From Cytophagales bacterium (lineage in GTDB: Bacteria; Bacteroidota; Bacteroidia; Cytophagales; Cyclobacteriaceae), in the NCBI GenBank assembly GCA_038229375.1, contig JBBRON010000027.1:92-64091 (forward strand): DNA of 64,000 bases, in the 5' to 3' direction. Below the pieces are notes generated by a model that made no database searches, had not been told where the DNA came from, and saw nothing but the letters and a program-made list of their open reading frames with translations. Of this stretch, positions 3,410-64,000 are shown one piece after another (position 1 is the stretch's first letter; each line of letters opens with the position of its first letter). The translations under genes and the position numbers were made by a program.

Positions 3410-3416
3410 TCTTCGT

Positions 3417-5199: not shown

Positions 5200-5202
5200 A
5201 TA

Positions 5203-16619: not shown

Positions 16620-16623
16620 GGCT

Positions 16624-25560: not shown

Positions 25561-25564
25561 AATA

Positions 25565-42073: not shown

Positions 42074-42879
42074 ACCGGAACCCAGTTATCTACGGTGTTC
42101 TGAAGAATTGTCGAAAATTCCGACCGTTGAGGAAGGTCGAGGTAGGGATAAATTACTTTGGAGAGGTAAAGACCCTGTGGATACGCCGGCTCAATATTTT
42201 TTGGTGGCTTTTTACTGATAAGATAACTTTCAAATTCATCTACGCTCATCTCACCCTGCCCTATTTCTATCAGCTTCGCTACAATGATCCGGATCATTCT
42301 TGCCAGGAAGCGATTAGCTGAAATTTGAAAACGAATTTTGTCACCAGAGGTATCCGTGAATAAATTGGCCGAAGAAACATTGCAAATTGTGGTTCTGTAA
42401 CTGGACGGACTCTTACAAAAGCCAGCGTAGTCATTATAGCGCGTCAATAGCGCAGTGGCCTCCCTCATCTTGTGAAGGTCAAGATTTGGAAGCAGATAAA
42501 ACGAACTAAGAGAATTTATAAATGGATCTTTATACGTATGAATAAAGTAATCATAGCGCCTGAGGATGGCATCAAATCGAGCATGCGCCAGATCGGCAAC
42601 TGGTAATATGTCAAACACAGAGATATCATCTGGCAGCATCTTGTTGATCCGGAATATAAGGTCATAGTCCCAATCGGTGGCGATATCAGCATGAAAGAAA
42701 AATTGACTTGCATGCACTTGCGCGTCTGTGCGGCCGCAACCTACCGCTGTGATCTCTTGTTTGAGGATCTGGCTCAGCGTTGTCTCAACAATTTCCTGAA
42801 TATTAACAGCCTTGGTCTGCCTCTGCCACCCACGATAACCATGACCGTTGTATGCTATATGAAAGAAGAATCTTTTCAA
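42070..42879 (-). CDS. truA: tRNA pseudouridine(38-40) synthase TruA
   Basis: MKRFFFHIAYNGHGYRGWQRQ and the catalytic GCGRTDAQVHA motif. Confidence 0.9.
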   Translation of the reverse strand: MKRFFFHIAYNGHGYRGWQRQTKAVNIQEIVETTLSQILKQEITAVGCGRTDAQVHASQFFFHADIATDWDYDLIFRINKMLPDDISVFDILPVADLAHARFDAILRRYDYFIHTYKDPFINSLSSFYLLPNLDLHKMREATALLTRYNDYAGFCKSPSSYRTTICNVSSANLFTDTSGDKIRFQISANRFLARMIRIIVAKLIEIGQGEMSVDEFESYLISKKPPKNIEPAYPQGLYLSKVIYPYLDLPQRSEFSTILQNTVDNWVPV

Positions 42880-43030: not shown

Positions 43031-43549
43031 ATGAAAAACGATACATCAAATCAAAACTTAGAACACCAGGCTGCAATTGAAAAAATGCAGGAACTGGTAA
43101 AGCACAATTCCATGTGCTTGTTTACTACCTTGCTTACTGAATTGCCATTGCATTCACGGCCGATGAGTATTGCGAAAGTGTGTGATCACGGAAATTTCTG
43201 GTTCCTGAGTGCCGGTGACAGCAATAAGAATATGAATATTTCTGCTGATCCAAGGGTGCAGCTGTTTTCAACCAATCAGTCCGACTCTGAGTACCTGACG
43301 GTGTATGGCAAAGCAACCATCACAAGAGAGAGGAAAAAAATTGAAGAAATCTGGACGCCGATCGCCAACGCATGGTTTAAAGACGGTATTGATGATCCTA
43401 GAGTCACGGTCATTAAGGTCGCTCCTGAAGAAGCCTATTATTGGGATACAAAGAACGGCAAGATGATATCAATGATCAAGATACTCGCGTCTGCTGTATC
43501 TGGTGCCAAGATAGATGATGGCGTACAGGGAGTTCTTTCGGTAAACTAA
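43031..43549 (+). CDS. Pyridoxamine 5'-phosphate oxidase-like / general stress protein 26 family
   Basis: Pattern CLFTT...RPMS...GNFWFLS...EYLTVYGKA...W...YWD typical of the GSP26/PNPOx-like fold. Confidence 0.7.
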   Translation: MKNDTSNQNLEHQAAIEKMQELVKHNSMCLFTTLLTELPLHSRPMSIAKVCDHGNFWFLSAGDSNKNMNISADPRVQLFSTNQSDSEYLTVYGKATITRERKKIEEIWTPIANAWFKDGIDDPRVTVIKVAPEEAYYWDTKNGKMISMIKILASAVSGAKIDDGVQGVLSVN

Positions 43550-44056: not shown

Positions 44057-45202
44057 ATGGCAGTAAAATTAAGAGAAAAAATGTTAGCAAACGGGCACGC
44101 GTCTTTTTACCTCGATATTTATCACAATAAAGCGAGGTGGTATGAGTTTCTCAACATCCATATTAACCGAAAGAAGCTATCCGAAGAAGACAAAGAAAAA
44201 AAACGACTGGCTGGGGAGATCAGATCCAGACGTGAGCACGAGCTTATCGTGGAAGACAATGGACTGATTGACAAGAAAAGGAAACTGGCAGATTTTAAAG
44301 AATTCTTAAAAGCACATCTGAATTCCAAGCCACACAATCATCTGTCAACGGCAACCGTTTATCAGTTAAATAAATTTATGGGGAAGCGTTCTCTTCCGAT
44401 CGCAAGCGTAACAACTGAATGGATGAAAGATTTTGAGAAATTTCTTCTGAAATCTGTGAGCAACAATAGTGCATTATGCTATCTCAAGAACATCAATGGC
44501 GCTTTGAATGAACTGGTGCGCAAGCAGGTCATCGCCAGCAACCCCTGGCATGGCGTTCCTAAACATGAGCGTTTGCAAAAGAAGGACATTATGCGCACTG
44601 CTTGGTCATTGGAACAACTACAACTGCTGGCCAATACATCGTGTAAAGTGGAGCCTCAGTTTAAGCAAGCTTATTTCTTTGCTTGCTTCACTGGCCTACG
44701 TTGGAGTGATGTTAATGGTCTAATGTGGACTAACATCATCCAGAAGACAATTAGCGAGCAGGAAGAGTGGTTCATTTACTTCGAACAACAAAAGACAGAA
44801 GCCGTTGAGTATTTTCCCTTGTCCGATCAGGCTGTTGAGATTGTGAAAGCACAAAAAACTCTCGATGATAAAAGCATCTATGTTTTTCCTCTAGTGAAAG
44901 AGACTGATTACAAGAACAAGCCTGTTCAAAGCAGGGTTGATTATGCATTGAAGAAATGGGCAAAGGCTGCCGGTCTTGATGAGAAGAAAATGAAATTCCA
45001 TACAGGCCGACATACCTATGCCACCAACTTGCTGGAGCTAACCAATGGCGACCTTTACACGGTTTCAAAGCTATTGGGCCATAAGAGCATCCTGACGACA
45101 CAGATCTATGCTCACGTGAGAGACCGGATGAAACAAGTGGCTGTTAAATCCTTGCCAAAACTAAATCTTCAGATAGCTCCTGATCCATTCATAAAAAAAT
45201 GA
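44057..45202 (+). CDS. Tyrosine-type site-specific recombinase/integrase (Bacteroidota phage-integrase family)
   Basis: C-terminal catalytic region FACFTGLRWSDV ... HTGRHTYATNLLE ... LLGHKSILTTQIYAHV (R..HxxR..Y). N-terminal Arm/SAM-like region. Confidence 0.95.
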   Translation: MAVKLREKMLANGHASFYLDIYHNKARWYEFLNIHINRKKLSEEDKEKKRLAGEIRSRREHELIVEDNGLIDKKRKLADFKEFLKAHLNSKPHNHLSTATVYQLNKFMGKRSLPIASVTTEWMKDFEKFLLKSVSNNSALCYLKNINGALNELVRKQVIASNPWHGVPKHERLQKKDIMRTAWSLEQLQLLANTSCKVEPQFKQAYFFACFTGLRWSDVNGLMWTNIIQKTISEQEEWFIYFEQQKTEAVEYFPLSDQAVEIVKAQKTLDDKSIYVFPLVKETDYKNKPVQSRVDYALKKWAKAAGLDEKKMKFHTGRHTYATNLLELTNGDLYTVSKLLGHKSILTTQIYAHVRDRMKQVAVKSLPKLNLQIAPDPFIKK

Positions 45203-46174: not shown

Positions 46175-46280
46175 AAATAAACTGACAGTTCAGGTTACTA
46201 GAGAGTTCAGGAACCCGACAATGAGATAATGAATGTACGATCTTTGTAGTAGTTCAAATCACTATAAAGATTTTCATTTT

Positions 46281-46616
46281 ATGACACATTCGTTTTTGTT
46301 GAGCCTGAATGAGGCGGAGTTCAAAGCTTTCCTGCGGGAAGCCTTGACAGAGATTTTGCTGGAGGTGAAACACAAGGCTGAGGCGAATATGCCTGACATC
46401 CTCAATGTATCAGAAGCGGCAGCTTTTCTGAAGCTGCAAATATCGACCCTTTACGAAAAGACGGCCACACGCCTGATCCCTCACTTCAAGAAGGGTAACC
46501 GGTTATACTTCTACCGGAAAGACTTGGAGGATTGGTTGCGTGAAGGCCGTGTTAAAACCCAGCGGGAGATTCAGGTCGACGCCTCTACATTCACCATGGG
46601 TAAGCAGTATAGGTAA
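46281..46616 (+). CDS. Excisionase/MerR-type helix-turn-helix DNA-binding protein
   Basis: ILNVSEAAAFLKLQISTLYEKTATRLIPHFKKGNRLYFYRKDLEDWL is the classic Xis-type HTH_17 pattern. Confidence 0.75.
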   Translation: MTHSFLLSLNEAEFKAFLREALTEILLEVKHKAEANMPDILNVSEAAAFLKLQISTLYEKTATRLIPHFKKGNRLYFYRKDLEDWLREGRVKTQREIQVDASTFTMGKQYR

Positions 46617-48608: not shown

Positions 48609-49291
48609 TGGTTCTGAAAGAAATAACCCGAACAGGTGGCTCAACGGTGACTGGTATAGTGTTTAATTGCTTTCAATATTGTTGTATATAAAGAATGCTA
48701 GCAAAGCCATAAGGGTTCCCAAGGCACAAGTAGAATTCCTAAAATCGCAGAGTACCCTCTGCTGTAGCGCAACACTCTTATGACCTTCGCCTATTATGAA
48801 GGAAATTTGTTTAACGAATAATGCAAATTTCACCATCACAAATCCAAAATGCCATTATTGCCACACTGGTTCTGGCCTATGCCGGAAATGTTCTTATTGG
48901 TTAATAATATGTAATGTAGAACTTTATGCCCTTATATAAAGCGGATTACCCGCATTCCGATTTCAATTCCTTAAACGAAGCAATAGAGGATGTGTTTACA
49001 CGGCATAGTAATTTCATGTAGTTTATGGATGTAAGAAATCGCCTTGCTTTTAATGAATGCTATAGCAATTGAGCGCTAAGAAACCATTGAATAAAATGGC
49101 ATATAAAAAATCGCGTCAACAGACAAACTAAAAACATTTTCAGCTCATTATCGATTCAGATAAAGTTGATTGTTTGATTCATAATGAATTATGTTGGCCA
49201 GCAAAATGACAACCGATTGAGAAGAGCTCAATCATAGTCAGACAAAAGATAAAGGCAACAGAAAATAAATAGTCACTTAAAAAGCAAGAAT

Positions 49292-49525
49292 ATGGAGATT
49301 AAAGAAAATAAATTAACTACCCGGAATTCTAAAACTCAAAAGTCACACAAAATACCCATTAGTAAAAAGCCAGGGAATGCTCCTTCGCATGAAGAGATAG
49401 CCGTATACGCTTATGTCCTTTATATTGCGAACGGTAAGGTTAGCGGCCGCGATATGGATGATTGGCTCCAGGCAGAATCTACACTATTCGATGCTAGCCC
49501 CGGTTCTGTTAGAAGTATAAGTTAG
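49292..49525 (+). CDS. DUF2934-like small protein
   Basis: HEEIAVYAYVLYIANGKVSGRDMDDWLQAE matches the DUF2934 pattern (I..RAY.L...RG...G...DW..AE). Confidence 0.6.
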   Translation: MEIKENKLTTRNSKTQKSHKIPISKKPGNAPSHEEIAVYAYVLYIANGKVSGRDMDDWLQAESTLFDASPGSVRSIS

Positions 49526-49770
49526 GTATGAATCCATAAATATAAACGTTCAACGGAAGTAATACTGCAGCATGGAATTCATTGAGAAGTAATCTGGGAT
49601 GAATCAAATGTTATCGTAACACTTCAATAGCGGCAGTAAAAGATTGCATGTTATTTAATGAATTAAAATATAACCTTCCTGAAAGCGCTTATTCATCATT
49701 AGAAAACAGTTGATGAAGTAAATTCATAAAACGAAACAGTAATTCAAATTTTTAATTTTAAATATAAACA

Positions 49771-50556
49771 ATGGAAAAGGAACTGACGTTGAATGAGGTC
49801 GAAGAAAAAAAAGGTAAAAATAAAAAAATTTTACACAATCTCTATATTGAGTTGGTGAAGTTGCAAAAGGAAGTAATTGCTTCGGATATAAAACTGCTCG
49901 TAATATTGGAGGGAAGGGATGCAGCTGGCAAAGACGGAACCATTAAAAGGATCATCAAACACTTGAGTCCTCGTGAAACAAAAGTAGTGGCATTGGGTAA
50001 GCCCACTGACGTTCAGGAACGCGAGTGGTATTTTCAGCGTTACACTTCTCACCTGCCGGCTTCGGGTGAATTTGTCATTTTCAACAGGAGCTGGTACAAC
50101 CGTGTTGGTGTTGAAAAAGTAATGGACTTCTGCACTCACAAGCAATACAAATCCTTTTTTAGTGAAGTAGAATCGTTTGAGAATAGCCTGGTGGAAGGAG
50201 GTTTCATCATCCTAAAATATTATTTGGATATCAGCAAAGATGAACAGAAAAAAAGATTAGATGATCGCAAACAAAATCCGCTGAAGAAATGGAAGATAAG
50301 CCCCATTGACGAGGTAGCACAAAAGCATTGGAAAGATTATTCAGATGCACGCGATGAAATGCTATTTAAAACAAATTTTAAGCATGCTCCATGGTTTGTT
50401 GTAAATGCTGATAAAAAGAAAGAAGCACGTATTGCTTTGATCACTCATATCCTGAATCGTATGAAATATAAACATAAGAATGAAAAATTAGTGTCGCATA
50501 GTTATGGTTTGATTGATCCGGCAACACCAGAAATCATAAAAGAAAAACTTTTCTGA
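49771..50556 (+). CDS. ppk2: Polyphosphate kinase 2 (single-domain PPK2)
   Basis: ILEGRDAAGKDGTIKRI (Walker A-like), WYFQRY, FNRSWYNRVGVE, KISPID. Confidence 0.9.
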   Translation: MEKELTLNEVEEKKGKNKKILHNLYIELVKLQKEVIASDIKLLVILEGRDAAGKDGTIKRIIKHLSPRETKVVALGKPTDVQEREWYFQRYTSHLPASGEFVIFNRSWYNRVGVEKVMDFCTHKQYKSFFSEVESFENSLVEGGFIILKYYLDISKDEQKKRLDDRKQNPLKKWKISPIDEVAQKHWKDYSDARDEMLFKTNFKHAPWFVVNADKKKEARIALITHILNRMKYKHKNEKLVSHSYGLIDPATPEIIKEKLF

Positions 50557-50728
50557 TACTGTAAATGGGTCTGTCAATATTCACATGCTCGAAATCATTT
50601 TTTTTTATGATAAAAATCATTTTTAAAATAAATCCATAAGATGAAATTGCCAATGATGGTAAAGCGACCAAATGAGACAGGTATGCGCCTGATTAAACTT
50701 GAAATTCACAATTAATAAAGGCAAATAG

Positions 50729-52225
<1,497 letters not shown>

Positions 52226-52242
52226 CAAGAAAAATCAATAGA

Positions 52243-52629
52243 ATGAATCTTAAAATTCTTTTACCCTTTAAAGTATTTGCTGACATAAAAAATGTTAGCC
52301 AGATAGTAATGGAAACAAGTGAAGGTTCTTATGGTTTGTTGCCACAACGGCTTGATTGTGTTGCGGCATTGGTGCCTGGCATATTTACGTATGAGACAAA
52401 CGGAGCGCTGCATTATGTAGCGGTTGATGAAGGTGTAATGATAAAAGCAGGTGCACAGGTTTTAGTATCGGTCCGTAATGCGGTTGGCGGAGTAGATCTG
52501 GGCAAACTTGGTGAACTGGTAAAAAAAGATTTCAACACGCAAGATGAAAATCAAAAACAGGCCACCACTGCTATCGCAAAATTAGAACGAGGATTTATTT
52601 ACAGCTTCGATAAACTTCGTAACAATTAA
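52243..52629 (+). CDS. atpC: F-type (N-ATPase) subunit epsilon
   Basis: 128 aa. N-terminal beta-sandwich pattern (LKILLPFKVF...GSYGLLPQRLDCVAALVPGIF). Position after atpD. Confidence 0.8.
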   Translation: MNLKILLPFKVFADIKNVSQIVMETSEGSYGLLPQRLDCVAALVPGIFTYETNGALHYVAVDEGVMIKAGAQVLVSVRNAVGGVDLGKLGELVKKDFNTQDENQKQATTAIAKLERGFIYSFDKLRNN

Positions 52630-52631
52630 AA

Positions 52632-52958
52632 ATGGAACCTACCACAAATAATAGGGAAGATAATTTTTTTAACACGGAGGTTTCTAAAAAAGAAAATCGA
52701 AAGCTAAAAGCCATGCGTGAAAAAAATGGTGTGTGGTTGGGATTAGGAATGATGGGCGCGGTAGGTTGGTCTGTAGCAGTCCCTTCATTACTTGGTGCAG
52801 CGCTCGGGCTGTGGTTGGATAAAAAGTATCCGCAATCATTTTCATGGACGTTGAGCTTGTTGATTGTGGGTATCACTGCAGGATGCATCATTGCCTGGTA
52901 TTGGGTTAGCAAAGAAGATAAAGAAATGCATAACAATAAAGATGAAAGCGATGAATGA
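52632..52958 (+). CDS. atpQ: N-ATPase AtpQ (AtpI/ATPase_gene1-like small membrane protein)
   Basis: GVWLGLGMMGAVGWSVAVPSLLGAALGLWLDKKYP, two TM helices; position. Confidence 0.75.
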   Translation: MEPTTNNREDNFFNTEVSKKENRKLKAMREKNGVWLGLGMMGAVGWSVAVPSLLGAALGLWLDKKYPQSFSWTLSLLIVGITAGCIIAWYWVSKEDKEMHNNKDESDE

Positions 52959-53265
52959 GATTTCAAATATGACATTATCATTTATAGGTGGAATAGTGTT
53001 GGGAACAGTATTCTTCGCAGGGCTGTGGTTTACCGTAAAAAAAATGGTTAATGCTAAAATACCCGCGCTGTGGGTGTTCGGCAGTTTCATCTTTCGTGTT
53101 GGTATAGTATTGCTTGGATTTTATTTTATAGGCGCTGGTAATTGGCAACGTCTTCTAGTTTGCCTGCTTGGTTTTATAGCAGCAAGGTTTATTGTAATTC
53201 ATTTCACCAAAGCAATTGATGCAAAGCAATTGCACCTAAACAAGGAGAATACCCATGGAGCTTAG
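52951..53265 (+). CDS. atpR: N-ATPase AtpR subunit (small membrane protein)
   Basis: Three hydrophobic helices with an intramembrane Arg (GFIAARFIVIHF). The start overlaps the atpQ stop. Lies between atpQ and atpB, as in N-ATPase operons. Confidence 0.7.
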   Translation: MNEISNMTLSFIGGIVLGTVFFAGLWFTVKKMVNAKIPALWVFGSFIFRVGIVLLGFYFIGAGNWQRLLVCLLGFIAARFIVIHFTKAIDAKQLHLNKENTHGA

Positions 53266-53950
53266 TCCTGACCAAACCATCTTTTGGCAACATGGTTTTA
53301 TTACCATTAATCTTACCCTGGTTACCACCTGGGCTTTAATGCTGATGCTGGTTATTGTTGCAGGAATGGTTACGCGAAAACTAAAAACGAATATTCAAAT
53401 TTCGCACTGGCAATGTTTTCTGGAAATGGTTGTGACAGGCATCAACGAACAAATTAAAGAAATTGGCTTAAGTAAACCAGAACAATATATTGGCTTTATC
53501 GGCACGTTGTTTTTGTTTATTGGTGTTGCTAATCTCTGCATTATATTCCCAGGCTATACGCCACCGACAGCATCACTTTCTACAACTACTGCACTTGCAT
53601 TGTGTGTATTTATTGCAGTACCATTTTTTGGTATTAGCAAAAGTGGCTTAAAAGGTTATTTGAAATCATACGTGAAGCCTACATTTATCATGTTGCCTTT
53701 CAATCTTATCAGCGAAATTTCACGGACGTTGGCATTGGCAGTAAGGTTGTTTGGCAACATAATGAGCGGCGGTATGATCGTTGGTATTTTATTAAGCATA
53801 TCGCCTTTTATATTTCCGGTTATCATGAATGCGCTGGGTTTACTCACCGGCGTAGTGCAGGCATATATCTTCAGTATTTTAGCAACCGTGTATATCACAG
53901 CAGCGGTGCATGATGCTAAGGAAACTAAAAAACAAATATCAACTAAATGA
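53255..53950 (+). CDS. atpB: F-type (N-ATPase) subunit a
   Basis: Essential stator-Arg region ISRTLALAVRLFGNIMSG; polytopic. Confidence 0.9.
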   Translation: MELSPDQTIFWQHGFITINLTLVTTWALMLMLVIVAGMVTRKLKTNIQISHWQCFLEMVVTGINEQIKEIGLSKPEQYIGFIGTLFLFIGVANLCIIFPGYTPPTASLSTTTALALCVFIAVPFFGISKSGLKGYLKSYVKPTFIMLPFNLISEISRTLALAVRLFGNIMSGGMIVGILLSISPFIFPVIMNALGLLTGVVQAYIFSILATVYITAAVHDAKETKKQISTK

Positions 53951-53960
53951 AAATTATAAA

Positions 53961-54230
53961 ATGGATAGTACAACTTTAATTGCAGTTGTGTCAATTGCTA
54001 CTGCCGGACTTACAACAGGTATTGGTTGCATGATGCCCGCTGCGGGCGAAGGCAAAGCCGTATCATCAGCATTAAGCGCTATTGCACAACAGCCCGATGC
54101 TGCGCCAACAATTACAAGAACTTTATTTGTTGGCTTAGCCATGATCGAGTCAACAGCCATCTACTGTTTCGTGGTTTCGATGATACTGATTTTCGCCAAT
54201 CCATTCTGGAACCATTTCATTGCAAAATAA
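53961..54230 (+). CDS. atpE: F-type (N-ATPase) subunit c, Na+-type ion-binding motif
   Basis: 89-aa hairpin. QQPDA loop. Helix 2 has IESTAIY (E-S-T-x-x-Y). Helix 1 has GEG where Na+-ATPases have GQG. Confidence 0.9.
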   Translation: MDSTTLIAVVSIATAGLTTGIGCMMPAAGEGKAVSSALSAIAQQPDAAPTITRTLFVGLAMIESTAIYCFVVSMILIFANPFWNHFIAK

Positions 54231-54236
54231 TTTATC

Positions 54237-55019
54237 ATGAACGTTAACTGGTTTACGGTAATTGCTCAGGTAATTAATTTTCTCATTTTGGTTTGGTTGC
54301 TGAAACGGTTTTTATATAAACCAATACTCAATGCCATTGACGAAAGAGAAAAAAAAATTGCAGCACAAATAAAGGATGCGGATGATAAAAAAGCAGCAGC
54401 ACAAAAAGAAGAGGACGAATTCGAAAAGAAGAATGAGGATTTTGATCAGCAAAAAAAATCCTTGATGGATAAAGCTGTTGCTGATGCAAATACTGAAAAG
54501 CTAAAGTTATTAGAGGGCGCAAAAGCCGATGCAAATACATTGCGTACCAATATGGAAAAAACTGCTAAAGAAAAACAAGCCAATGACACTACGGAGATGG
54601 CCGAAAAAGCCCAACAACAGGTTTTTGCAATTACAAGAAAGGCACTTGCTGATATTGCTTCAATAAGTTTGGAAGAGCAATCAGCAAACACATTTATTAA
54701 ACGTTTACATGAATTAAAAGATGATGAGAAGAAGCAATTCATCGATGCTTTTAAATCAAACTCAAATTCAATTTTAGTGAAAAGCGCATTCGAGCTTCCT
54801 ACAAAACAACAAGGTGAAATAAAGGATGCAGTAAATGTAATGCTCAGCGCAAATACACAAATGCAATTTAAAATGGCGCCTGAAATAATAGGCGGAATTG
54901 AGCTTTCCACCAATGGATATAAACTGGCGTGGAGTTTTTCTGAATACCTTAATTCAATGGAAAAAAATATTTCCGAAACCATGAAAGAAAAAGAACAGAC
55001 GGCGCCGGAAGAAAAATAG
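54237..55019 (+). CDS. atpF: F-type (N-ATPase) subunit b, extended (260 aa) with delta/OSCP-like C-terminal segment
   Basis: N-terminal TM ([17 protein letters not shown]) plus a long charged helix. The C-terminus [28 protein letters not shown] resembles the delta-subunit C-terminal motif. Confidence 0.85.
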
Positions 55020-55020
55020 T

Positions 55021-56595
55021 ATGTCAGCAATTGAAACCGATAATATTGTAACCAACATATTCAATCTATTAGATAAGGGGATAGAGAACTATCATTTTTC
55101 TTTGAAGCCCCGTGAAGTTGGTTTAGTAACCAGTGTGTCAACGGGCATTGCTAAAGTCTCCGGACTTCCCGGCGCAGGCTTTGAGGAATTGTTGAAATTT
55201 CCAGGAAACCTTTTTGGCATCGCTTATAATATTGATGAAGATGAAATAGGCGTGATACTACTAGGTAAAGATTCATTGCTGAAAGTCGGAGATGAAGTGG
55301 AGCGGACGGACAGAGTGATGGATGTTCCGGTTGGTGATTCATTAATTGGAAGAGTGATCGACCCTTTGGGTCAACCCATTGATGATAAAGGTGCGATCAC
55401 TCACAAAGAACGATTACCCATTGAACGCCCTGCACATGCAATTATGGATCGAAGTCCGGTAACTGTTCCGTTGCAAACAGGCATTAAAGTAATTGATGCG
55501 TTAATTCCTATTGGCCGCGGTCAGCGTGAATTAATTGTAGGTGATCGCCAAACCGGTAAAACAACTATTGCCATTGATGCTATTCTTAATCAAAAAGATA
55601 AAAATGTTTTATGCGTGTATTGTGCGATTGGCCAACGTGCATCTGCAGTAGCAAAAGTAATTGCCAACCTCAGGGAAAAAGGCGCCATGGAATATACCGT
55701 TGTTGTTGTGGCTGAAGGAAACAATTCTCCCGGATTAGAATACATAGCACCGTATGCGGCTACCAGCATTGCAGAATATTTTATGGAACAAGGGCGTGAT
55801 GTATTAATCGTTTATGACGACCTTACACATCATGCTCGTTCTTATCGCGAACTTTCTTTATTGTTAAGACGGCCACCCGGACGTGAGGCATTCCCCGGCG
55901 ATATTTTTTATATCCACTCAAGATTGTTGGAAAGATCAACACACTTAAGTGATGAACTGAAAGGTGGATCATTAACAGCTTTGCCTATTATTGAAACCGA
56001 AGCACAAAACATCTCCGCTTATATTCCAACCAATCTTATTTCAATCACTGACGGACAAATATATCTATCACCCAAACTTTTTGAATTGGGTAATTTACCC
56101 GCTGTTCATGTAGGCAAATCCGTTTCACGTGTCGGCGATAAGGCTCAATTACCTGCCTATCGATCCATAGCAAATTTGAAACTGGAGTATGCACAATTTG
56201 AAGAACTGGAAACCTTTGCCCGTTTCGGTACAAGGCTTGATGAAAATACAAAAAAGACAATTGAGCATGGAAAAAGAATACGTGAGTGCCTGAAGCAACC
56301 TGAACTGCAACAGATGCCGGTTTCAGAACAGATCGTGGTTTTGCTTGCATTGAAAAATGGCATCCTGGATACAATACCACTTGAAAAAATTCAGGATGCG
56401 CAAGATACACTTCTCAAAAACTTTAAAGATTTTCCGGACGAAATAATCAAGCGATTATTTTCGAATGCAAAACTGAGTGATGAAGACAGCACGGCTATTT
56501 TAAAAATCGCCGGGACCATCCTTGCGCCCTTTCAGGACAAACCAAAGTCAGAAGAAAATCAGGACAAGGCAAAGCCAGATCAGAATAAAAAGTAA
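55021..56595 (+). CDS. atpA: F-type (N-ATPase) subunit alpha
   Basis: Walker [45 protein letters not shown]. Confidence 0.95.
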
Positions 56596-57479
56596 TGGAC
56601 ACTTTAGAAAATTTACGCAACAAAACGGAAGGGGCAAAAGATTTGAAATCTGTTGTAAGTGCCATGAAGGCGATGGCAGCATCAAATATTGTTCAATATG
56701 AAACCGCCGTGGCTTCCCTTGATGAGTATTATCATACAATAGCTTTAGGCATCATCGCTTATTTCAAGGCAGAAAAAATTACAGCAATAAATGAAAAGAC
56801 AGCATCAAAAAAGAAATCTAAAGATGTGATCTGCGCCATTGTTTTCGGATCAGACCAGGGCCTTGTTGCTCAGTTCAATGATTCGATGGCAACCTTTGTT
56901 TCCATGTCTCTCAAGGATTTGCCAGGTAAAAAAAATATTTGGGCTGTGGGAGAACGTGTTCAATTGCTTTTGTCAGATGAAGGATTTAACACTTCAAAAT
57001 TGTATCCCGTTCCGAATGACATTAATGCTGCAGTTCCTTTAGTGACAGAGATTTTAAACAAGAGCCAGGAAAGCCAGCAAAAAGAAGAGGTAACAGCGTT
57101 TTATATCTTTCATAATAAACCAAAGTCTGGGCCTGGTTACACGCCGGTAATGCAAAGGTTTCTACCGTTGGATGAAAAATGGAAAGAAACTTTACAGCAA
57201 ATTCCATGGCCTACAAAATTACTTCCACAGATTGCAGGAGGCGTAAAGCCCACGCTGACCGCATTAATAAACGGATATCTTTTTGCCTCTCTTTTCAAAG
57301 CTTGTATAGAATCATTAGCGAGTGAAAATGCAAGTCGATTGGATGCCATGCAACGGGCTGAAAAAAATATAAATGATCTGCTGGAAGCACTTGGTGAAAA
57401 ATATCATCGCCTGCGCCAGAGTTCCATTGATGAGGAATTGTTTGATGTGGTTTCCGGCTTCGAAGCTTTGAGAAAGTAA
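56595..57479 (+). CDS. atpG: F-type (N-ATPase) subunit gamma
   Basis: N-terminal LKSVVSAMKAMAASN and C-terminal RLRQSSIDEELFDVVSG helices typical of gamma. The start overlaps the atpA stop. Confidence 0.85.
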   Translation: MDTLENLRNKTEGAKDLKSVVSAMKAMAASNIVQYETAVASLDEYYHTIALGIIAYFKAEKITAINEKTASKKKSKDVICAIVFGSDQGLVAQFNDSMATFVSMSLKDLPGKKNIWAVGERVQLLLSDEGFNTSKLYPVPNDINAAVPLVTEILNKSQESQQKEEVTAFYIFHNKPKSGPGYTPVMQRFLPLDEKWKETLQQIPWPTKLLPQIAGGVKPTLTALINGYLFASLFKACIESLASENASRLDAMQRAEKNINDLLEALGEKYHRLRQSSIDEELFDVVSGFEALRK

Positions 57480-57504
57480 ATTTGAGATTAAGAATTGATG
57501 TTGC

Positions 57505-60174
57505 ATGTTTCATATTGAATCGCCTTTTAAAACAAATCAATCAATGTTAAAAGTAATAAATGATTTGCCCGGCAATGTTTTAGGCATTGGAGCAGAGGGA
57601 GAAGTAACAGGTCCAGATTCTGAAAATGTTTTAATACCCGCAGTGGATAAAAAATTAAAATTGTATAGTTTTTTTCCGTCAAATGCTGAAGGAGTTAATG
57701 CGCTTGCACAGCTTGCTCTTGATCTTCAGTGGTCATGGAACCATGCAGCAGATGAAATTTGGAACCAGCTTGATCCGGAGCTTTGGGAACTCACGCATAA
57801 CCCATGGGTTATTTTGCAAACAGTATCCCGTGACCGGTTAGAGAAGAATTTAGCGGATCCGGTTTTCCTGGAAAAGATAAATACTTTAATAAGGGAAAAG
57901 GAATCCGAATACACAACGCCAGCATGGTTTCAGCAAAACCATCAGAATTCTTCGCTTACGTGTATTGCCTATTTCAGTATGGAATTTATGTTAAGCGAAG
58001 CCCTGCCAATTTATGTTGGCGGATTGGGGAATGTTGCAGGTGATCAGTTAAAATCTGCCAGTGATCTTGGAGTACCTGTTGTGGCTGTGGGCTTACTTTA
58101 CCAGCAGGGATATTTCCGACAGGAGATAGATAAATATGGTAACCAGCAAGCAATGTTTCCCTTCAATGATCCGGGTCAGTTACCTGTTACCCCATTGCGT
58201 TTACACAATGGGGAATGGCTTCGTTTAAAAATATCGTTGGGAGTGTACACTGTCTGGCTTCGCACCTGGCAGGTGAAGGTAGGAAGAGTGATTCTTTACT
58301 TACTCGACAGCAATGACGCAGTGAATTTACCGATGCATCGGGAAATAACCAGCCAAGTATACGGAGGTGGATCAGAAATGAGAATTAAACAGGAGATCCT
58401 TTTAGGAATAGGCGGATGGAAATTACTTGAAGCACTTGGTATTAAGCCTGAAGTATGCCATATGAATGAAGGGCATGCTGCCTTTCTTATATTAGAAAGA
58501 GCGAATAGTTTTAAGAAAGAAACAGGCGTTTCATTCGAAGTTGCATTAGCTATAACACGAGCGGGTAATTTATTTACAACACATACAGCAGTAGCTGCTG
58601 GTTTTGATCATTTTAGTCCAGCATTAATGGAAGAATTTTTTAGTGATTATGCTAAGGAAGAACTCGGTGTAGATTTAAAAAATATATTAGCGCTTGGTCG
58701 TTTAAATCCTGATAACAGTTCCGAAAGTTTCAATATGGCTTACCTCGCTATCCGTGGAAGCGGAGCAGTCAATGGTGTAAGTCGTTTACATGGTAAGGTA
58801 AGCCGGCATCTTTTTGAAAACCTTTTTCCACGCTGGCCAAAAGATGAAGTACCAGTCGGGCATGTAACGAATGGTGTGCATATGCCAACCTGGGATGCTG
58901 AAGTCGCTGACAAAATCTGGACAGAGGCTTGCGGAAAAGATCGCTGGAAAGGCGAGTTAGAAAATCTTGAGAATAAGATAAGTAAATTATCAGATGAAAC
59001 ACTTTGGCACTTGCGCAACACATGCCGCACCAACCTTGTTGATTTTACCCGTAAAAAATTGGAATTACAATTACAGGTTTCAGGACAGCCCCGGGAAATC
59101 GTTGATAAAGCAAGACATGTCTTCAATCGCAATACATTAACGCTCGGCTTCGCACGACGCTTTGTTCCGTATAAAAGACCAAACCTTTTATTGCATGACC
59201 CGGAAAGATTTATCCGCATACTCACCAATCCTGAACATCCGGTTCAATTAATAATTGCAGGCAAAGCGCCTCCGTTTGATGAATCAGGCAAGGCATTGAT
59301 TCGACAGTGGGTTGAGTTTATTCAACAACATAATTTATATAACCATGTTGTTTTTTTAAGCGATTATGATGTGTTATTAACTGAACATTTGGTTCAGGGA
59401 ACGGATGTTTGGGTCAATACGCCGAGGCGGCCATGGGAAGCATGCGGCACAAGTGGCATGAAGGTGCTGGTGAATGGCGGCATTAATCTTTCGGAACGGG
59501 ATGGCTGGTGGGCGGAAGCCTATACCCCGGAAGTAGGATGGGCTCTCGGTGATGAACAAGAACATGGAGATGATCTGAATTGGAATGCTGTAGAAGCGGA
59601 ATCGTTGTACAACATATTGGAAAACCAGGTGGTGCCTGAATTTTATACACGCAACAACAACGGAATACCGGAACGCTGGATGCAAAGAATGCGAAAAAGT
59701 ATGGCGACACTGACGCCACAGTTTTCTGCCAACCGCACCGTACGTGAATACACAGAAAATTACTATTTGCCTGCGGCAGCAAACTATTTAAAACGTGCTG
59801 CCGGCAAAGGAGCCGTAGGAAAAGAGATAATCAATGAACAACATGGATTACAAAATAAATGGAACGAAATAAAAATCGTTGATGTAAAATCAGCAAGCAT
59901 TGAGAACGGATATTCCTTTACAGCTGTTATTTTTTTGAATGGAATAGATGCCAATAAAATATTGGTAGAGTTATTTGCGGAGGCAAAAGATGACATGAAT
60001 ACGGAACATATAAAAATGAACAAACAGCCATCTAAAAGTGAGGAACAATTATTTTTTGCAGAACTTACTACACGGAGAGATGCAAGTGATTATACGGTTC
60101 GTATCATTCCGGCATGTGAAAACATTTCAGTGCCCCTTGAAAATAATCTTATTCTATGGCAACACTACTTTTAA
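57505..60174 (+). CDS. glgP: Alpha-glucan phosphorylase (GT35, GlgP-family, DUF3417-type N-terminus) with an N-terminal extension derived from a STAS/SpoIIAA-like gene
   Basis: LDLQWSWNH, GGLGNVAGDQLKSASDLGVPVVAVGLLYQQGYFRQ, NEGHAAF, EACGTSGMK (PLP-Lys region). See the finding on residues 14-57. Confidence 0.9.
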   Translation: MFHIESPFKTNQSMLKVINDLPGNVLGIGAEGEVTGPDSENVLIPAVDKKLKLYSFFPSNAEGVNALAQLALDLQWSWNHAADEIWNQLDPELWELTHNPWVILQTVSRDRLEKNLADPVFLEKINTLIREKESEYTTPAWFQQNHQNSSLTCIAYFSMEFMLSEALPIYVGGLGNVAGDQLKSASDLGVPVVAVGLLYQQGYFRQEIDKYGNQQAMFPFNDPGQLPVTPLRLHNGEWLRLKISLGVYTVWLRTWQVKVGRVILYLLDSNDAVNLPMHREITSQVYGGGSEMRIKQEILLGIGGWKLLEALGIKPEVCHMNEGHAAFLILERANSFKKETGVSFEVALAITRAGNLFTTHTAVAAGFDHFSPALMEEFFSDYAKEELGVDLKNILALGRLNPDNSSESFNMAYLAIRGSGAVNGVSRLHGKVSRHLFENLFPRWPKDEVPVGHVTNGVHMPTWDAEVADKIWTEACGKDRWKGELENLENKISKLSDETLWHLRNTCRTNLVDFTRKKLELQLQVSGQPREIVDKARHVFNRNTLTLGFARRFVPYKRPNLLLHDPERFIRILTNPEHPVQLIIAGKAPPFDESGKALIRQWVEFIQQHNLYNHVVFLSDYDVLLTEHLVQGTDVWVNTPRRPWEACGTSGMKVLVNGGINLSERDGWWAEAYTPEVGWALGDEQEHGDDLNWNAVEAESLYNILENQVVPEFYTRNNNGIPERWMQRMRKSMATLTPQFSANRTVREYTENYYLPAAANYLKRAAGKGAVGKEIINEQHGLQNKWNEIKIVDVKSASIENGYSFTAVIFLNGIDANKILVELFAEAKDDMNTEHIKMNKQPSKSEEQLFFAELTTRRDASDYTVRIIPACENISVPLENNLILWQHYF

Positions 60175-60188
60175 AATCGACAAGAAAA

Positions 60189-60809
60189 ATGATTAAAAAA
60201 AATATAACAACATTATTCATTGATATCGGCGGCGTTCTGCTTACCAATGGATGGGGACATGTATCACGACACCTGGCAGCCGAAAAATTTCACCTGGATA
60301 AACCGGAAATGGAAACCCGGCATAAGCTTACATTCGACACGTATGAATTAGGCAAGCTTACACTTGAAGAGTATTTAGACCGAACGGTATTTTATGAAGA
60401 GAGATCGTTTACTAAAAAAGAATTCAAGCAATTCATGTTTGATCAATCTCATAAACTTCCGGAAATGATAACGTTTATCATTGAATTAAAAAAGAAATAT
60501 AATTTAAAGATCGCAGTCGTGAGTAATGAAGGAAGAGAGCTGAATGACTACCGTATTGAAACATTTAACTTAGGCATCTTCGTTGATTTTTTTATCTCTT
60601 CCAGCTATGTTCATTTCCGGAAACCGGATGTCGACATATTTAAATTGGCCCTTGATATATCCCACGTTAAGCCAGAAGAAGTAATTTATATTGAAGATCA
60701 GCCAATGTTTGTAAGCGTAGCAGAAAGTTTAGGAATAACAGGCATTCATCATATCAGTTATGAAGATACCTGCAAGAAATTGGAATCATTCGGATTAATA
60801 AGTAAATAA
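60189..60809 (+). CDS. HAD-superfamily hydrolase (subfamily IA)
   Basis: Motif I LFIDIGGVLL, motif II VVSNE, motif III K in RKPD, motif IV IYIEDQ. I chose the start at MIKKNI rather than the track start, which overlaps glgP. Confidence 0.8.
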   Translation: MIKKNITTLFIDIGGVLLTNGWGHVSRHLAAEKFHLDKPEMETRHKLTFDTYELGKLTLEEYLDRTVFYEERSFTKKEFKQFMFDQSHKLPEMITFIIELKKKYNLKIAVVSNEGRELNDYRIETFNLGIFVDFFISSSYVHFRKPDVDIFKLALDISHVKPEEVIYIEDQPMFVSVAESLGITGIHHISYEDTCKKLESFGLISK

Positions 60810-61993
60810 TGAAGCCGGGCGACTCAAGTATTTTAACGATCAACGGAGGTTCATCCAGCATTAAGTTTGCGTTGTATAAAATGGAAGAAACGCTGACACA
60901 ATTATTTTGTGGGGAGATAGAAAACATCGGCTCTAAAAAAGCAACGCTCAATTTTAATAATACCATTACTCAACAAAAAAATAGTGAGAGCATAAAAGCT
61001 ACCAGTCACAATCAGGCTGCTAATCACTTGATCAACTTTCTTGAGAAGCAGGAAGGTTTTGATTCAGTCAAAGCAATAGGTCATCGCATAGTTCATGGAA
61101 TGAACCATACAGAACCCGAACTTATTACTGATGATTTATTAAATGAGTTAAAAAAGATCAGTGCCTTCGATCCCGAACATTTGCCAGAAGAAATTGAATT
61201 GATAGAAGCGTTCAGTAAGCGTTACCAGGCGTTAAAACAGATAGCTTGTTTTGATACTTCTTTTCATACTTCTATGCCGGTGGTTGCAAAGTTATTATCC
61301 ATACCACGCCGCTATTATGAAATGGGCATTCAACGTTACGGCTTTCATGGGCTCTCTTATTCCTATCTCATGAAAGAGCTTGAACGTATTGCTGGAGCAG
61401 AGGCGGCAAAGGGTAAAGTAGTTTTAGCACATCTTGGAAATGGTGCAAGCCTGACTGCGGTTAAAGATGGTAAAAGTATTGACACCAGTATGGGATTTAC
61501 GCCAACATCAGGATTACCTATGAGCACGCGTACTGGTGATCTTGATCCCGGCGTAGCGTGGTATTTAATGCAGCATGAAAAACTTACACCTAAAAAATTC
61601 AGCCATCTTATCAATCACGAATCCGGTTTACTAGGAATATCAGAAACAAATTCTGACATGCGGGAACTAATGAAAATCGAAGATACTGATGAACGTGCAA
61701 AAGAAGCTATTGCATTGTTTTGCTATCAAACAAAAAAATGGATCGGCTCATTCGCTGCTGTACTAGGAGGCTTAGATGTAGTGGTGTTTTCAGGTGGTAT
61801 TGGCGAACATTCGCCAGAGGTACGAAGTAAAATATGTAAGGGACTTGAGTTCTTAGGAATTGAATTGGATGAAATAAAAAACACGAACAATGAACCTGTT
61901 ATTTCTACTGAGATCAGTAACGTGACAGTTCGTGTTATTAAAACAAATGAGGAGTTAATGATTGCAACCTTGGTTTGCAATTTTTTAAAATAA
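60809..61993 (+). CDS. ackA: Acetate kinase
   Basis: ILTINGGSSSIKFALY, GHRIVHG, FDTSFH, GFHGLSY, AHLGNGASL, FSGGIGE. Confidence 0.95.
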   Translation: MKPGDSSILTINGGSSSIKFALYKMEETLTQLFCGEIENIGSKKATLNFNNTITQQKNSESIKATSHNQAANHLINFLEKQEGFDSVKAIGHRIVHGMNHTEPELITDDLLNELKKISAFDPEHLPEEIELIEAFSKRYQALKQIACFDTSFHTSMPVVAKLLSIPRRYYEMGIQRYGFHGLSYSYLMKELERIAGAEAAKGKVVLAHLGNGASLTAVKDGKSIDTSMGFTPTSGLPMSTRTGDLDPGVAWYLMQHEKLTPKKFSHLINHESGLLGISETNSDMRELMKIEDTDERAKEAIALFCYQTKKWIGSFAAVLGGLDVVVFSGGIGEHSPEVRSKICKGLEFLGIELDEIKNTNNEPVISTEISNVTVRVIKTNEELMIATLVCNFLK

Positions 61994-62007
61994 TTGAAAC
62001 TATAAAA

Positions 62008-64000
62008 CTATAAAACTATGGAAACAGAAATTAGAAATATGGCAGTTGAAACTTTATCGCCGGAATTACTTCAAAAGATGGATGCATACTGGCGGGCAGC
62101 TAATTATTTATCTGTAGGACAAATTTATCTCTACGACAACCCGCTTTTAAAAGAGCCGCTAAAACTGGAGCATGTAAAACCTTTAGTAGTGGGGCATTGG
62201 GGCACCACTCCGGGACAAAATTTTATTTATGTGCATCTGAATAGGGTCATTAAAAAATATGATCTTGATATGTTTTACATCGCAGGTCCGGGGCATGGCG
62301 GTCCAGCCATAGTTGGCAATGTTTATTTGGAAGGCACCTGGAGTGAAGTATATCCAGATATTACACAAGATGAAGCCGGATTAAAAAAGTTATTCAAACA
62401 ATTCTCTTTTCCTGGAGGTATTTCCAGCCATGTGGCCCCAACAACTCCTGGTTCTATTCATGAAGGTGGCGAATTAGGTTACTCATTGAGTCATGCTTTT
62501 GGCGCAGCTTTCGATAATCCCGGTTTGATTGTCGCTTGCATTGTTGGTGACGGCGAAGCGGAAACAGGACCTTTGGCTACAGCATGGCATTCAAATAAAT
62601 TTTTGAATCCAATTAGCGATGGGGCCGTGTTGCCGATCCTTCATCTGAATGGTTACAAGATAAGCAATCCAACAATCCTCGCACGAATAGAGCATGAAGA
62701 ACTGGAGCAATTCTACAGAGGTTGTGGATGGACTCCTTATTTTGTTGAAGGAGATGACCCTGCAACCATGCATCAACTTATGGCAGCAACGATGGAAAAA
62801 GCTATAGAGGAAATACATAGGATTCAGGGCAGAGCGCGAGACACTAACGATAACACAAGACCACGCTGGCCAATGATCATATTACGTTCACCTAAAGGTT
62901 GGACGGGACCAAAAGAAGTGGATGGTGTTCCCAATGAAGGAACGTTTCATTCACACCAGGTGCCTATCCTAGTTGATGCTGAACATCCCCAACACGTTGA
63001 ACAACTTGAACGGTGGATGAAAAGTTATAAAGCAGAAGAGCTGTTTGATGAAAATGGTAAGGTGATTGCAGCGTTAGCCGAACTTGTACCTGTCGGTAAC
63101 AGGAGGATGGGTGCTAACCAACATACCAACGGTGGTATATTATTACGTGACCTTGTTATGCCTGATTTTCGTAATCATGCAGTGCAAGTTACTTCTCCCG
63201 GTGCAGTGATGGGTCAGGATACGATGGTTCTTGGAAAATTTCTGCGCGATGTAGAAAAGCTAAATCATGACCATCATAACTTCCGTGTATTTGGCCCTGA
63301 TGAAACGGTTTCAAATTTACTGGGAGCAGTTTTCGAGGTAACTTCCAGGCAATGGGAAGCAAGAGAAGAAAAGAACGATGAGTTCCTTGCCCCAAACGGA
63401 CAAGTACTGGATGCCATGTTGAGTGAACACCAGTGCCAGGGTTGGCTGGAAGGTTATCTATTAACAGGGAGGCATGGACTGTTTAATAGTTATGAAGCAT
63501 TTATCCGCATCGTTGATTCGATGTTTAGTCAGCATGCCAAATGGTTGAAAGTAACATCTGAATTACCCTGGAGAAGAAAAATTGCGTCACTTAATTATTT
63601 ATTGGCATCACACGTTTGGCAACAGGATCACAATGGCTTTACACACCAGGATCCCGGTTTCCTTGATCATGTCATTAATAAGAAAGCAGATGTGGTACGA
63701 GTCTATCTGCCCCCAGATGCTAACTGCCTCTTATCTGTTTTTGATCATTGTTTACGAAGCCGACATTATGTAAATGTTGTGGTAGCAGGCAAACATCCAC
63801 TGCCGCAATGGCTTACTATGGATGAAGCTGTAATTCATTGCACCGAAGGAATTGGTATCTGGCAATGGGCAAGTAATGACCAGGGTGCTGAGCCTGATGT
63901 TGTAATGGCTTGCAGTGGTGATACGCCAACGCTAGAATTATTGGCTGCTGTTTCAATATTACGCGAACATCTTCCTGAACTAAAAATACGGGTGGTCAAT
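62008..64000 (+). CDS. xfp: Phosphoketolase (xylulose-5-P/fructose-6-P phosphoketolase), C-terminus beyond the window
   Basis: Absent from the ORF track (open at the edge). My translation from the ATG at 62008 gives [44 protein letters not shown]...[20 protein letters not shown]...GPGHGGPA...[20 protein letters not shown]...[15 protein letters not shown]. Confidence 0.95.

Follow-up and report, generated by a model that had tools for sequence, protein, structure and literature searches.

We analyzed a 64,000-nucleotide stretch of DNA from a Cytophagales bacterium (Bacteroidota; Cyclobacteriaceae; GenBank assembly GCA_038229375.1, contig JBBRON010000027.1, positions 92 to 64,091 of the forward strand), referred to here as the window, whose last part carries the operon of an N-type rotary ATPase (N-ATPase) running on into genes of ATP-yielding metabolism. 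Open reading frame (ORF) listing together with Pfam and NCBIfam comparisons placed 15 genes, all on the plus strand, between positions 49292 and 64000. The genes and one putative control region are the following, with bit scores given against the curated cut-off of each model and GC3 denoting the G+C content of third codon positions.

49292-49525, plus strand, small DUF2934 protein of 77 amino acids (PF11154, E 2.5e-9; GC3 0.359)
49771-50556, plus strand, PPK2 of the single-domain class-I type, polyphosphate + nucleoside diphosphate (NDP) -> nucleoside triphosphate (NTP) (PF03976, E 1e-92; TIGR03707, 325.5 bits, cut-off 301.8)
50585-50649, plus strand, putative control region of the atp transcription unit (direct repeat and conserved A.TTG core)
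50729-52225, plus strand, atpD, N-ATPase beta subunit (TIGR03305 alt_F1F0_F1_bet, 824.8 bits, cut-off 752)
52243-52629, plus strand, atpC, N-ATPase epsilon subunit (TIGR03166, 147.5 bits, cut-off 100.1)
52632-52958, plus strand, atpQ, ATPase_gene1 / AtpZ-AtpI-like membrane protein (PF09527; TIGR02230, 127.3 bits, cut-off 46.7)
52951-53265, plus strand, atpR, N-ATPase marker subunit of 104 amino acids (PF12966, 93.2 bits, E 1.4e-26; TIGR03165, 86.7 bits, cut-off 55.5)
53255-53950, plus strand, atpB, N-ATPase a subunit (TIGR03306, 349.1 bits, cut-off 302.1)
53961-54230, plus strand, atpE, N-ATPase c subunit (TIGR03322, 155.7 bits, cut-off 130.85)
54237-55019, plus strand, atpF, long b subunit of 260 amino acids (TIGR03321, 284.5 bits, cut-off 224.7)
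55021-56595, plus strand, atpA, N-ATPase alpha subunit (TIGR03324, 860.3 bits, cut-off 750.5)
56595-57479, plus strand, atpG, N-ATPase gamma subunit (TIGR03323, 378.4 bits, cut-off 282.35)
57505-60174, plus strand, glgP, alpha-glucan (glycogen/maltodextrin) phosphorylase of the DUF3417 type (PF11897 and PF00343; TIGR02094, 774 bits, cut-off 191.7)
60156-60809, plus strand, HAD-IA family hydrolase (PF13419 and PF00702; the generic HAD-IA model alone above its cut-off)
60809-61993, plus strand, ackA, acetate kinase, acetyl-phosphate + ADP -> acetate + ATP (PF00871, E 8e-117; TIGR00016, 393.5 bits, cut-off 293.4)
62018 to beyond 64000, plus strand, xfp, phosphoketolase, first 661 codons (XFP_N, XFP and XFP_C domains; NF003619, 1188 bits, cut-off 962)

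The xfp gene, whose start codon was set by frame analysis, runs past the end of the window and scores above the cut-off despite its missing C terminus. From atpD through xfp every gap is 25 bp or less and several genes overlap; the largest spacers of the cluster separate DUF2934 from PPK2 (245 bp) and PPK2 from atpD (172 bp). An initial annotation, made from the sequence alone, had counted 16 genes and a gap of 14 bp between ackA and xfp, which the ORF coordinates revise to 15 genes and 24 bp, while its overlap of atpA and atpG at 56595, its 25-bp gap between atpG and glgP, and its overlap of the HAD gene and ackA at 60809 are all correct. A scan of the window found no terminator-like site in any gene junction, and neither Rfam families nor tRNAs were found in the window. 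With such gaps and overlaps, junctions free of terminator-like sites and a promoter-like box only upstream of atpD, the sequence is compatible with an apparent single transcript from atpD to xfp.

The gene order atpD-atpC-atpQ-atpR-atpB-atpE-atpF-atpA-atpG at 50729 to 57479 is exactly that of N-ATPases, and each of the nine subunits passes the curated cut-off of its NCBIfam "alternate F1F0 ATPase" model. For the alpha, beta, gamma, epsilon, a, b, and c subunits, these alt_F1F0 models also outscore the canonical ones, a clade placement that is made by profile score. Residues 171 to 244 of AtpF match subunit delta weakly (NF004402, E 1.9e-4), and a separate delta gene is absent, with no delta ORF between atpF and atpA, which lie 1 bp apart. 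Homologues of AtpR come from Ferruginibacter, Chitinophagaceae, Saprospirales, and other Bacteroidota, and every one of 123 carries PF12966. In the c subunit, helix 1 contributes a Glu (GEG) and helix 2 the ESTxxY, together the two-carboxylate Na+ motif. In an alignment with 3zk1, a PDB chain whose entry is deposited as ATP synthase subunit c and is presumably the two-carboxylate Na+ ring of Fusobacterium nucleatum, its GEG falls on GEG and its ESTaiY on ESTgiY; the chain of 1yce ("sodium ion specific") is matched as well. The N-ATPases, whose operons are laterally mobile, are marked by this gene order, by having AtpQ and AtpR, by a long b subunit with a delta-like tail, and by a full set of Na+ ligands in c (Dibrova et al. 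2010, PMC2881411). The window enzyme resembles them in its gene order, AtpQ and AtpR, b-delta fusion, two Glu and ESTxxY in c, and lateral mobility, and by these features of its sequence it is a clear member of this known kind.

The enzymes encoded around the operon are mostly well defined. PPK2 exceeds the TIGR03707 equivalog cut-off, the models of the two-domain AMP-phosphotransferases stay far below theirs, and its best solved relatives, the PPK2 entries 5llf/4yeg and 6dzg ("polyphosphate:ADP phosphotransferase 1"), are enzymes that we take to be class I. In AckA, PF00871 spans residues 8 to 386, a full-length domain. Xfp and AckA together yield ATP by way of acetyl-phosphate, a route that aldolase, transaldolase, and transketolase make redox-neutral ("non-oxidative glycolysis"). 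The HAD protein has as its best solved relative an uncharacterized "hydrolase family protein" (3cnh); the NCBIfam and solved-structure comparisons returned no specific family model above cut-off and no characterized closest structure for it, and it is a candidate sugar-phosphate phosphatase or mutase. The DUF2934 gene is co-directional and shares the low GC3 common to the cluster. It had been counted as a member, but it is not conserved: among 80 related loci (see below) a single weak tblastn match was found (locus L031, 35% identity).

The spacer between PPK2 and atpD contains the signals that may govern the operon. Two copies of an 18-nucleotide direct repeat, ATGmTmrAAATCATTTTT, lie 22 bp apart at 50585-50602 and 50607-50624; the copies, ATGCTCGAAATCATTTTT and ATGATAAAAATCATTTTT, stand just upstream of the promoter-like box TGAAATTG at 50642-50649, 80 nucleotides before atpD. 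Bacteroidota promoters depart from the sigma-70 consensus, and their -7 consensus is TAnnTTTG. We infer a likeness of TGAAATTG to this -7 box; its A.TTG core is invariant across 10 aligned PPK2-atpD spacers, and it likely marks the start of the atp-xfp transcript. Because this conserved box stands between PPK2 and atpD, PPK2 is probably transcribed on its own, which qualifies its earlier inclusion in the module; the other part of that claim, its linkage to the N-ATPase, is, like that of glgP, HAD, ackA, and xfp, strongly conserved in a clade of Bacteroidota (see below). The direct repeat may be a regulator site; of 68 other regions upstream of atpD, only 5 have its core AAATCATTTTT, with one mismatch allowed. 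A k-mer enrichment analysis of 67 atpD upstream regions yielded no common regulator motif; many of these regions simply consist of the 3' terminus of an alcohol dehydrogenase gene that lies upstream. A sigma-70 promoter scan of the window, with 43 matches against 47 expected, is uninformative.

The cluster is compositionally uniform. Its 15 genes have a GC3 of 0.349 ± 0.025 (range, 0.30 to 0.39), compared with 0.448 ± 0.027 for the 24 genes at 1 to 37 kb, and the GC profile of the window falls after about 47 kb; the compositional break from the left part, proposed earlier as something to look for, is thus present. No gene of the left flank is syntenic with any related N-ATPase locus. Because GC3 is uniformly low and the left flank lacks this synteny, the whole block, ATPase and metabolic genes together, looks like one acquired unit.

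A profile from a 13-sequence AtpR alignment, run against GTDB contigs with one genome per species, found 429 relatives. The best 80 of the 429 were taken with 10-kb flanks; the closest genomic loci among them belong to Ginsengibacter and to metagenome-assembled genomes (MAGs) of Chitinophagaceae. Neighbors were scored by tblastn with the window proteins at 42 loci whose sequence extends at least 5 kb past atpG and at 58 with at least 2.5 kb upstream of atpD; because only about 5.7 kb beyond atpG was available, the counts are lower bounds. At least one of glgP, HAD, ackA, and xfp is present in 32 of the 42 loci (glgP in 19, HAD in 15, ackA in 18, xfp in 19, and ackA or xfp in 27), and PPK2 lies upstream of atpD in 23 of 58. 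By our rough estimate, chance would place a single-copy gene of a 4- to 6-Mb genome there at a few tenths of a percent of loci. The enrichment of these neighbors around AtpR-marked operons, which the initial annotation had left for other genomes to decide, is positive, and its absence can be set aside as an objection. Judged by record titles, the carriers include Chitinophagales, Cytophagales (Algoriphagus), MAGs labeled Bacteroidales, and Leeuwenhoekiella, Kaistella, and Pricia, which we take to be Flavobacteriales.

The order of these genes varies strongly, with 21 different arrangements among the 42 loci. The window layout, PPK2-[atp]-glgP-HAD-ackA(-xfp), is the commonest (7 loci). Fifteen loci have glgP as the gene right after atpG (within 150 bp), seven have HAD, and two have ackA, and the gap from atpG to the next glgP, HAD, or ackA measures 21 to 66 bp in 24 loci. 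In L037 and L055 the metabolic genes precede atpD, L043 has them on the other strand, and L067 and L080 carry PPK2 on the downstream side. By identity, ackA forms two classes (57 to 60% and 72 to 82%), which suggests that ackA was recruited independently or replaced. Given the 21 arrangements, the shifted or inverted metabolic genes, and the two ackA classes, the linkage is, to judge from these comparisons, more than inherited synteny. The arrangement is also more than chance, because most related genomes have these genes beside their N-ATPase and the 15 genes are one block in composition.

When every ORF of the 80 loci was clustered without bias, other recurrent neighbors emerged: a Zn alcohol dehydrogenase (18 loci), an S30AE protein resembling ribosome hibernation factors (18 loci), a PRC-barrel protein (17 loci), an AraC regulator (14 loci), a cupin (13 loci), a P-type cation ATPase (10 loci), and a class-I fructose-bisphosphate aldolase (10 loci). 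The alcohol dehydrogenase gene often ends a few bases before atpD, and the S30AE-like gene often lies between ackA and xfp. Hibernation factor, alcohol dehydrogenase, and aldolase as neighbors fit a non-growing, oxygen-poor state.

Several further features of these loci were recorded. Only the last ~60 nucleotides of the alcohol dehydrogenase gene are kept upstream of atpD in L002 (~1040-1125) and L012, and an intact gene precedes atpD in L001, L006, and L008; the relic apparently shows recent gene loss at this junction. PRC-barrel proteins adjoin N-ATPases in Alphaproteobacteria as well as Bacteroidota (L082, 12925-13692 and 27273-27632; L089, 2064-2843; the 17 Bacteroidota loci, e.g., L032, 3691-4422). 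His/Met-rich P-type ATPases of the heavy-metal type and small Met-rich proteins adjoin N-ATPase or xfp-ackA clusters in several phyla (L003, L007, L059, L077, and others, cluster c31; L085, L091, L094, L096). Some MAGs contributed several AtpR contigs (L002, L019, and L048 from JACDBU01; L006 and L076 from JBBRAD01), reflecting either multiple N-ATPase operons per genome or mixed strains in the bin. In L022, on a complete 7.2-Mb chromosome (OW818689.1), a second alpha/beta pair (48% and 45% identity; ~1069-5200) lies 3 to 7 kb upstream of the N-ATPase operon and probably represents canonical F-type genes.

We regard it as somewhat probable that the cluster is a laterally acquired supra-operon of a Chitinophagaceae-like bacterium in which an N-ATPase of the Na+ type has been fused to redox-neutral ATP sources that would fuel an ATP-driven Na+ pump when respiration fails. 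Stored alpha-glucan would be cleaved at no ATP cost to glucose-1-phosphate by the phosphorylase, whose enzyme family is established, and housekeeping enzymes encoded outside the cluster would presumably convert this product to fructose-6-phosphate and xylulose-5-phosphate. Phosphoketolase would turn these sugar phosphates into acetyl-phosphate, from which acetate kinase would make ATP and acetate, and the class-I PPK2 encoded just upstream would make NTP from polyphosphate. The N-ATPase would hydrolyze that ATP and expel Na+ (or H+), so that membrane potential and ion homeostasis would be kept when the respiratory chain fails, for example, in anoxia, starvation, or dormancy. The sequence comparisons establish which genes are present, their close operon-like spacing, the common composition of the block, and the conserved linkage; which way the ATPase runs, which ion it pumps, what induces the cluster, and what the HAD protein does are our inference.

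The flow of phosphate could also be imagined in the opposite direction, with PPK2 building polyphosphate or GTP pools, reserves being laid down in times of plenty, and the ATPase having nothing to do with their use. PPK2 is reversible and AckA can activate acetate, but phosphorylase and phosphoketolase are catabolic in their established roles, and class-I PPK2 proteins of this type have, to judge from family names, mainly been characterized as polyphosphate-dependent NDP kinases. Moreover, neither glycogen synthase, branching enzyme, nor PPK1 is found in the cluster or among the recurrent neighbors of the 80 loci. We consider such a storage function very improbable.

The proposal of a fueled ion pump can also be compared with N-ATPases outside this group of Bacteroidota. 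Plasmids of PLSDB were searched by tblastn with N-type beta and gamma subunits and with AckA, and the deposited annotation was then read for 16 lineages with the N-type gene order. A kinase of substrate-level phosphorylation lies within about 15 kb of the N-ATPase in 5 of the 16. In Polymorphobacter a tkt-zwf-rpe-ackA-gnd-tal-pgi-rpiA-xfp-fba cluster is divergent from atpD, and in Methylophaga thalassica isoamylase-pgm-pgi-tkt-glgP-ackA-xfp lies beside a decayed atpD, with ppk2 15 kb further on. Sulfitobacter SK012 and a plasmid group of Sphingobium, Novosphingobium, and Rhizorhabdus carry a pta-like gene, ackA, and fabI, in the latter 1.5 kb from atpD. In Roseicitreum antarcticum (L089, 8060-11792), genes for arginine deiminase (arcA), ornithine carbamoyltransferase (argF), and carbamate kinase (arcC), together with an HdeD acid-resistance gene, run into atpD, with a Crp/Fnr regulator, a PRC-barrel protein, and a P-type ATPase close by. 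Partial sets occur in four further lineages: Legionella anisa (pta-like), Croceicoccus (fba), Methylocystis (fba), and Hymenobacter (tpi, pgm, and glgP at the operon; HAD-ackA-xfp-fba 41 kb off on the same plasmid). Two canonical F-ATPase operons met in the same searches, which serve as controls, have ordinary neighbors only. The pairing of an N-ATPase with a source of substrate-level ATP, a theme already suggested for the window, thus recurs with different pathways in Alpha- and Gammaproteobacteria; it is frequent, not obligatory. The Xfp proteins of Polymorphobacter and Methylophaga are 75 to 76% identical to that of the window, as close as many Bacteroidota copies, and therefore the metabolic genes also move between phyla. 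Universal stress proteins, Hsp20, and a Crp/Fnr regulator adjoin other N-ATPases.

Some of these plasmids show additional peculiarities. On that of Methylophaga thalassica (L087, 14001-15120), all that is left of the N-ATPase is a piece of atpD without annotation, matching 72% of the query in two parts, and the adjacent glycogen-xfp-ackA cluster is intact. In Acaryochloris marina (L088, 14105-15334), a cation:proton antiporter gene stands between atpQ and atpR, a single-gene insertion already mentioned by Dibrova et al., and the operon is surrounded by Hsp20, Zn alcohol dehydrogenase, phosphoenolpyruvate synthase, and universal stress protein genes. A gene of the "thymidine phosphorylase family" occurs near the N-ATPases of Legionella anisa (L081, 78-2497), Croceicoccus marinus (L085, 1-2374), and Sphingobium yanoikuyae (L091, 22818-24356). 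It is paired with ribose-phosphate pyrophosphokinase in the first two, and the pair may serve to salvage nucleotides or AMP as part of the same theme.

Such plasmid-borne examples bear on the question of whether the two halves of the cluster have merely traveled together, the N-ATPase as a Na+ pump for salt or alkali stress and glgP-HAD-ackA-xfp as ordinary sugar or glycogen catabolism (heterofermentative or overflow), linked by co-transfer. The block is compositionally foreign, N-ATPase operons are laterally mobile (PMC2881411), many of the examples outside Bacteroidota are on plasmids, the xfp-ackA module exists independently, and heavy-metal P-type ATPases and efflux genes are frequent neighbors, as in accessory-gene "drawers." Co-transfer does not predict the 21- to 66-bp gaps after atpG in 24 loci, however, nor a linkage maintained through 21 rearrangements, nor unrelated lineages placing different ATP-yielding pathways (Pta-like/AckA, arginine deiminase) at the same position. 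The idea is weakened by this operonic spacing, by the survival of linkage through rearrangement, and by convergent recruitment, and we judge it unlikely.

A number of observations weigh against a dedicated, fueled pump. The 80 loci form one clade, the closest AtpR relatives of the window, and are not independent of each other, and 10 of the 42 loci contain none of glgP, HAD, ackA, and xfp. Seven of the 16 plasmid lineages (Picosynechococcus PCC 7002, Acaryochloris, Azospirillum, Methylovirgula, Alloyangia, Caballeronia, and Salinigranum) have no such neighbors. The xfp-ackA module occurs without an N-ATPase on plasmid 2 of Nitrobacter hamburgensis, and in Hymenobacter xfp-ackA is separated from the ATPase by the 41 kb mentioned above. 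The cluster does not encode pgm, pgi, tal, or tkt, and without genes for phosphoglucomutase, glucose-6-phosphate isomerase, and transaldolase/transketolase the module is not "self-contained," as it had been called. A search for Fnr/Crp boxes (TTGAT-N4-ATCAA, one mismatch) gave 6 matches against 6.5 expected, none in the promoter region or near the operon start. Finally, a large c-ring lowers the ion-motive force needed for ATP synthesis. The only N-type ring studied biochemically, that of Burkholderia pseudomallei, is H+-coupled and has 17 subunits (PMC5376962).

A ring of that size would suit an energy-starvation island without direct coupling, in which the N-ATPase acts as a high-ratio ATP synthase on a weak Na+ or H+ gradient and its neighbors are parallel ATP sources answering the same signal. 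The 17 c subunits of this one characterized N-type rotor (PMC5376962), and with them the lower ion-motive force required, speak for such a synthase, and the hibernation factor, stress proteins, and alcohol dehydrogenase would suit a shared low-energy regulon equally well. Yet N-ATPases always occur beside a normal ATP synthase and never as the sole rotary ATPase, and are hence presumed to be ATP-driven pumps (PMC2881411; PMC11738941); deleting the operon that encodes the N-ATPase in Methanosarcina acetivorans left ATP synthesis unaffected (PMC2881411). In addition, spacing of the translational-coupling type with ATP producers is easier to understand for a producer-consumer pair. We consider the synthase alternative unlikely and keep to the ATP-consuming Na+ pump fed from stored polymers as our preferred explanation.

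The survival module envisaged in the initial annotation is upheld by the conserved linkage, the recurring theme, and the compositional break, and loses the integrase, DUF2934, and self-containment as supports. The integrase had been taken as a sign of cluster mobility. It belongs to a group of genes to the left of the cluster, whose recognizable members and nearest neighbors are the following.

42070-42879, minus strand, truA
43031-43549, PPOX-class protein
44057-45202, plus strand, tyrosine recombinase of 381 amino acids (family match)
46233-46616, same strand as the recombinase, HTH_17 (excisionase-like) protein (family match)

Between 44057 and 48608 the recombinase is followed by five ORFs on the same strand, one of them the HTH_17 gene and the other four without a family match. 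The GC3 of this module is heterogeneous, and it looks like a small integrative element, a separate mobile module next door. No homologue of the integrase was found near any of the 80 related N-ATPase loci. The repeat search of the window, whose end the right edge of the cluster lies beyond, gave no convincing att-like or flanking repeats. With no homologue at those loci and neither tRNA nor att-like repeat in the window, the integrase is not evidence for how the cluster moves. The 683 bp between this module and DUF2934 (48609-49291) are AT-rich (~35% GC) and ORF-free, with no Rfam match and no tRNA, and might be where the island joins its flank or where a promoter lies. The left part of the window, from 1 to 42000, contains very long ORFs, such as 8162-12337 (1391 amino acids) and 16573-19701, 22444-25560, and 25547-28855, each of more than 1000 amino acids.

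Compared with known systems, the N-ATPase itself is not new; the new element is an N-ATPase operon extended by its probable fuel supply. The published N-ATPase unit comprises nine genes, neighbors having been used only to show insertion points (PMC2881411); in the window the operon runs unbroken into glgP-HAD-ackA-xfp, with PPK2 before it, and the extension is kept across many Bacteroidota. The N-type ATPase of Burkholderia pseudomallei (c17; Schulz et al. 2017, PMC5376962) is likewise a second rotary ATPase and a proposed ATP-driven ion pump in times of stress. That enzyme is H+-binding and tied to acid stress and virulence genes, whereas the window enzyme has the full Na+ ligand set, neighbors for ATP supply, and a host among environmental Bacteroidota. 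As far as the searched text goes, the lxa locus of Burkholderia cenocepacia (Sass et al. 2013, PMC3721108) resembles the cluster, as do dormancy regulons of the DosR type, in being an accessory set for the survival of aerobes without oxygen. In that text, lxa contains acetate kinase, phosphate acyltransferase, polyhydroxyalkanoate (PHA) genes, alcohol dehydrogenases, stress proteins, and a cation ATPase (PMC3721108); the ATPase is annotated as P-type and the reserve polymer is PHA, in contrast to the rotary ATPase, glycogen, and polyphosphate of the window. The idea that lxa itself carries an N-ATPase and a phosphoketolase was rejected, as neither matched in the searched text (PMC3721108). The bifid shunt and non-oxidative glycolysis share with the cluster the formation of ATP from acetyl-phosphate by Xfp and AckA, and related loci have a class-I aldolase or a full pentose-phosphate set, but the Xfp-AckA pair of the window is appended to an ion-pumping ATPase operon, outside any gene set for growth by fermentation. 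We take the source lineage to be mostly aerobic. A full-text search, beyond whose reach the paywalled literature lay, found no paper describing linkage of an N-ATPase to phosphoketolase, acetate kinase, glycogen phosphorylase, or polyphosphate kinase.

About 1,800 N-type ATPases have been catalogued in prokaryotic genomes (ProAD, PMC11738941), and in 2025 that database paper still termed their pump function "presumed." Fusion at the operon level with makers of ATP that work independently of respiration provides independent comparative evidence that the N-ATPase consumes ATP, and it also hints at the timing, with reserves burnt when no electron acceptor is at hand. Cultured carriers (Kaistella jeonii DSM 17048, Algoriphagus antarcticus DSM 15986, Leeuwenhoekiella aestuarii, and Hymenobacter psoromatis) make the hypothesis testable. 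The finding bears on how aerobic Bacteroidota, a common group in soils, lakes, and activated sludge, get through periods of anoxia, and the module could serve as a compact design for energizing engineered aerobes without oxygen. More generally, and only as a tentative suggestion, N-ATPases may be maintenance pumps of non-respiring cells that spread with whichever redox-neutral source of substrate-level ATP suits the recipient: glycogen and polyphosphate with Xfp, AckA, and PPK2, a PHA-type set with a Pta-like protein and AckA, or the arginine deiminase pathway. If this is true, a portable cassette would hold the membrane potential and Na+ balance of aerobes through anoxia or dormancy, and a class of rotary ATPases whose function has been "presumed" since 2010 would gain a physiological role.

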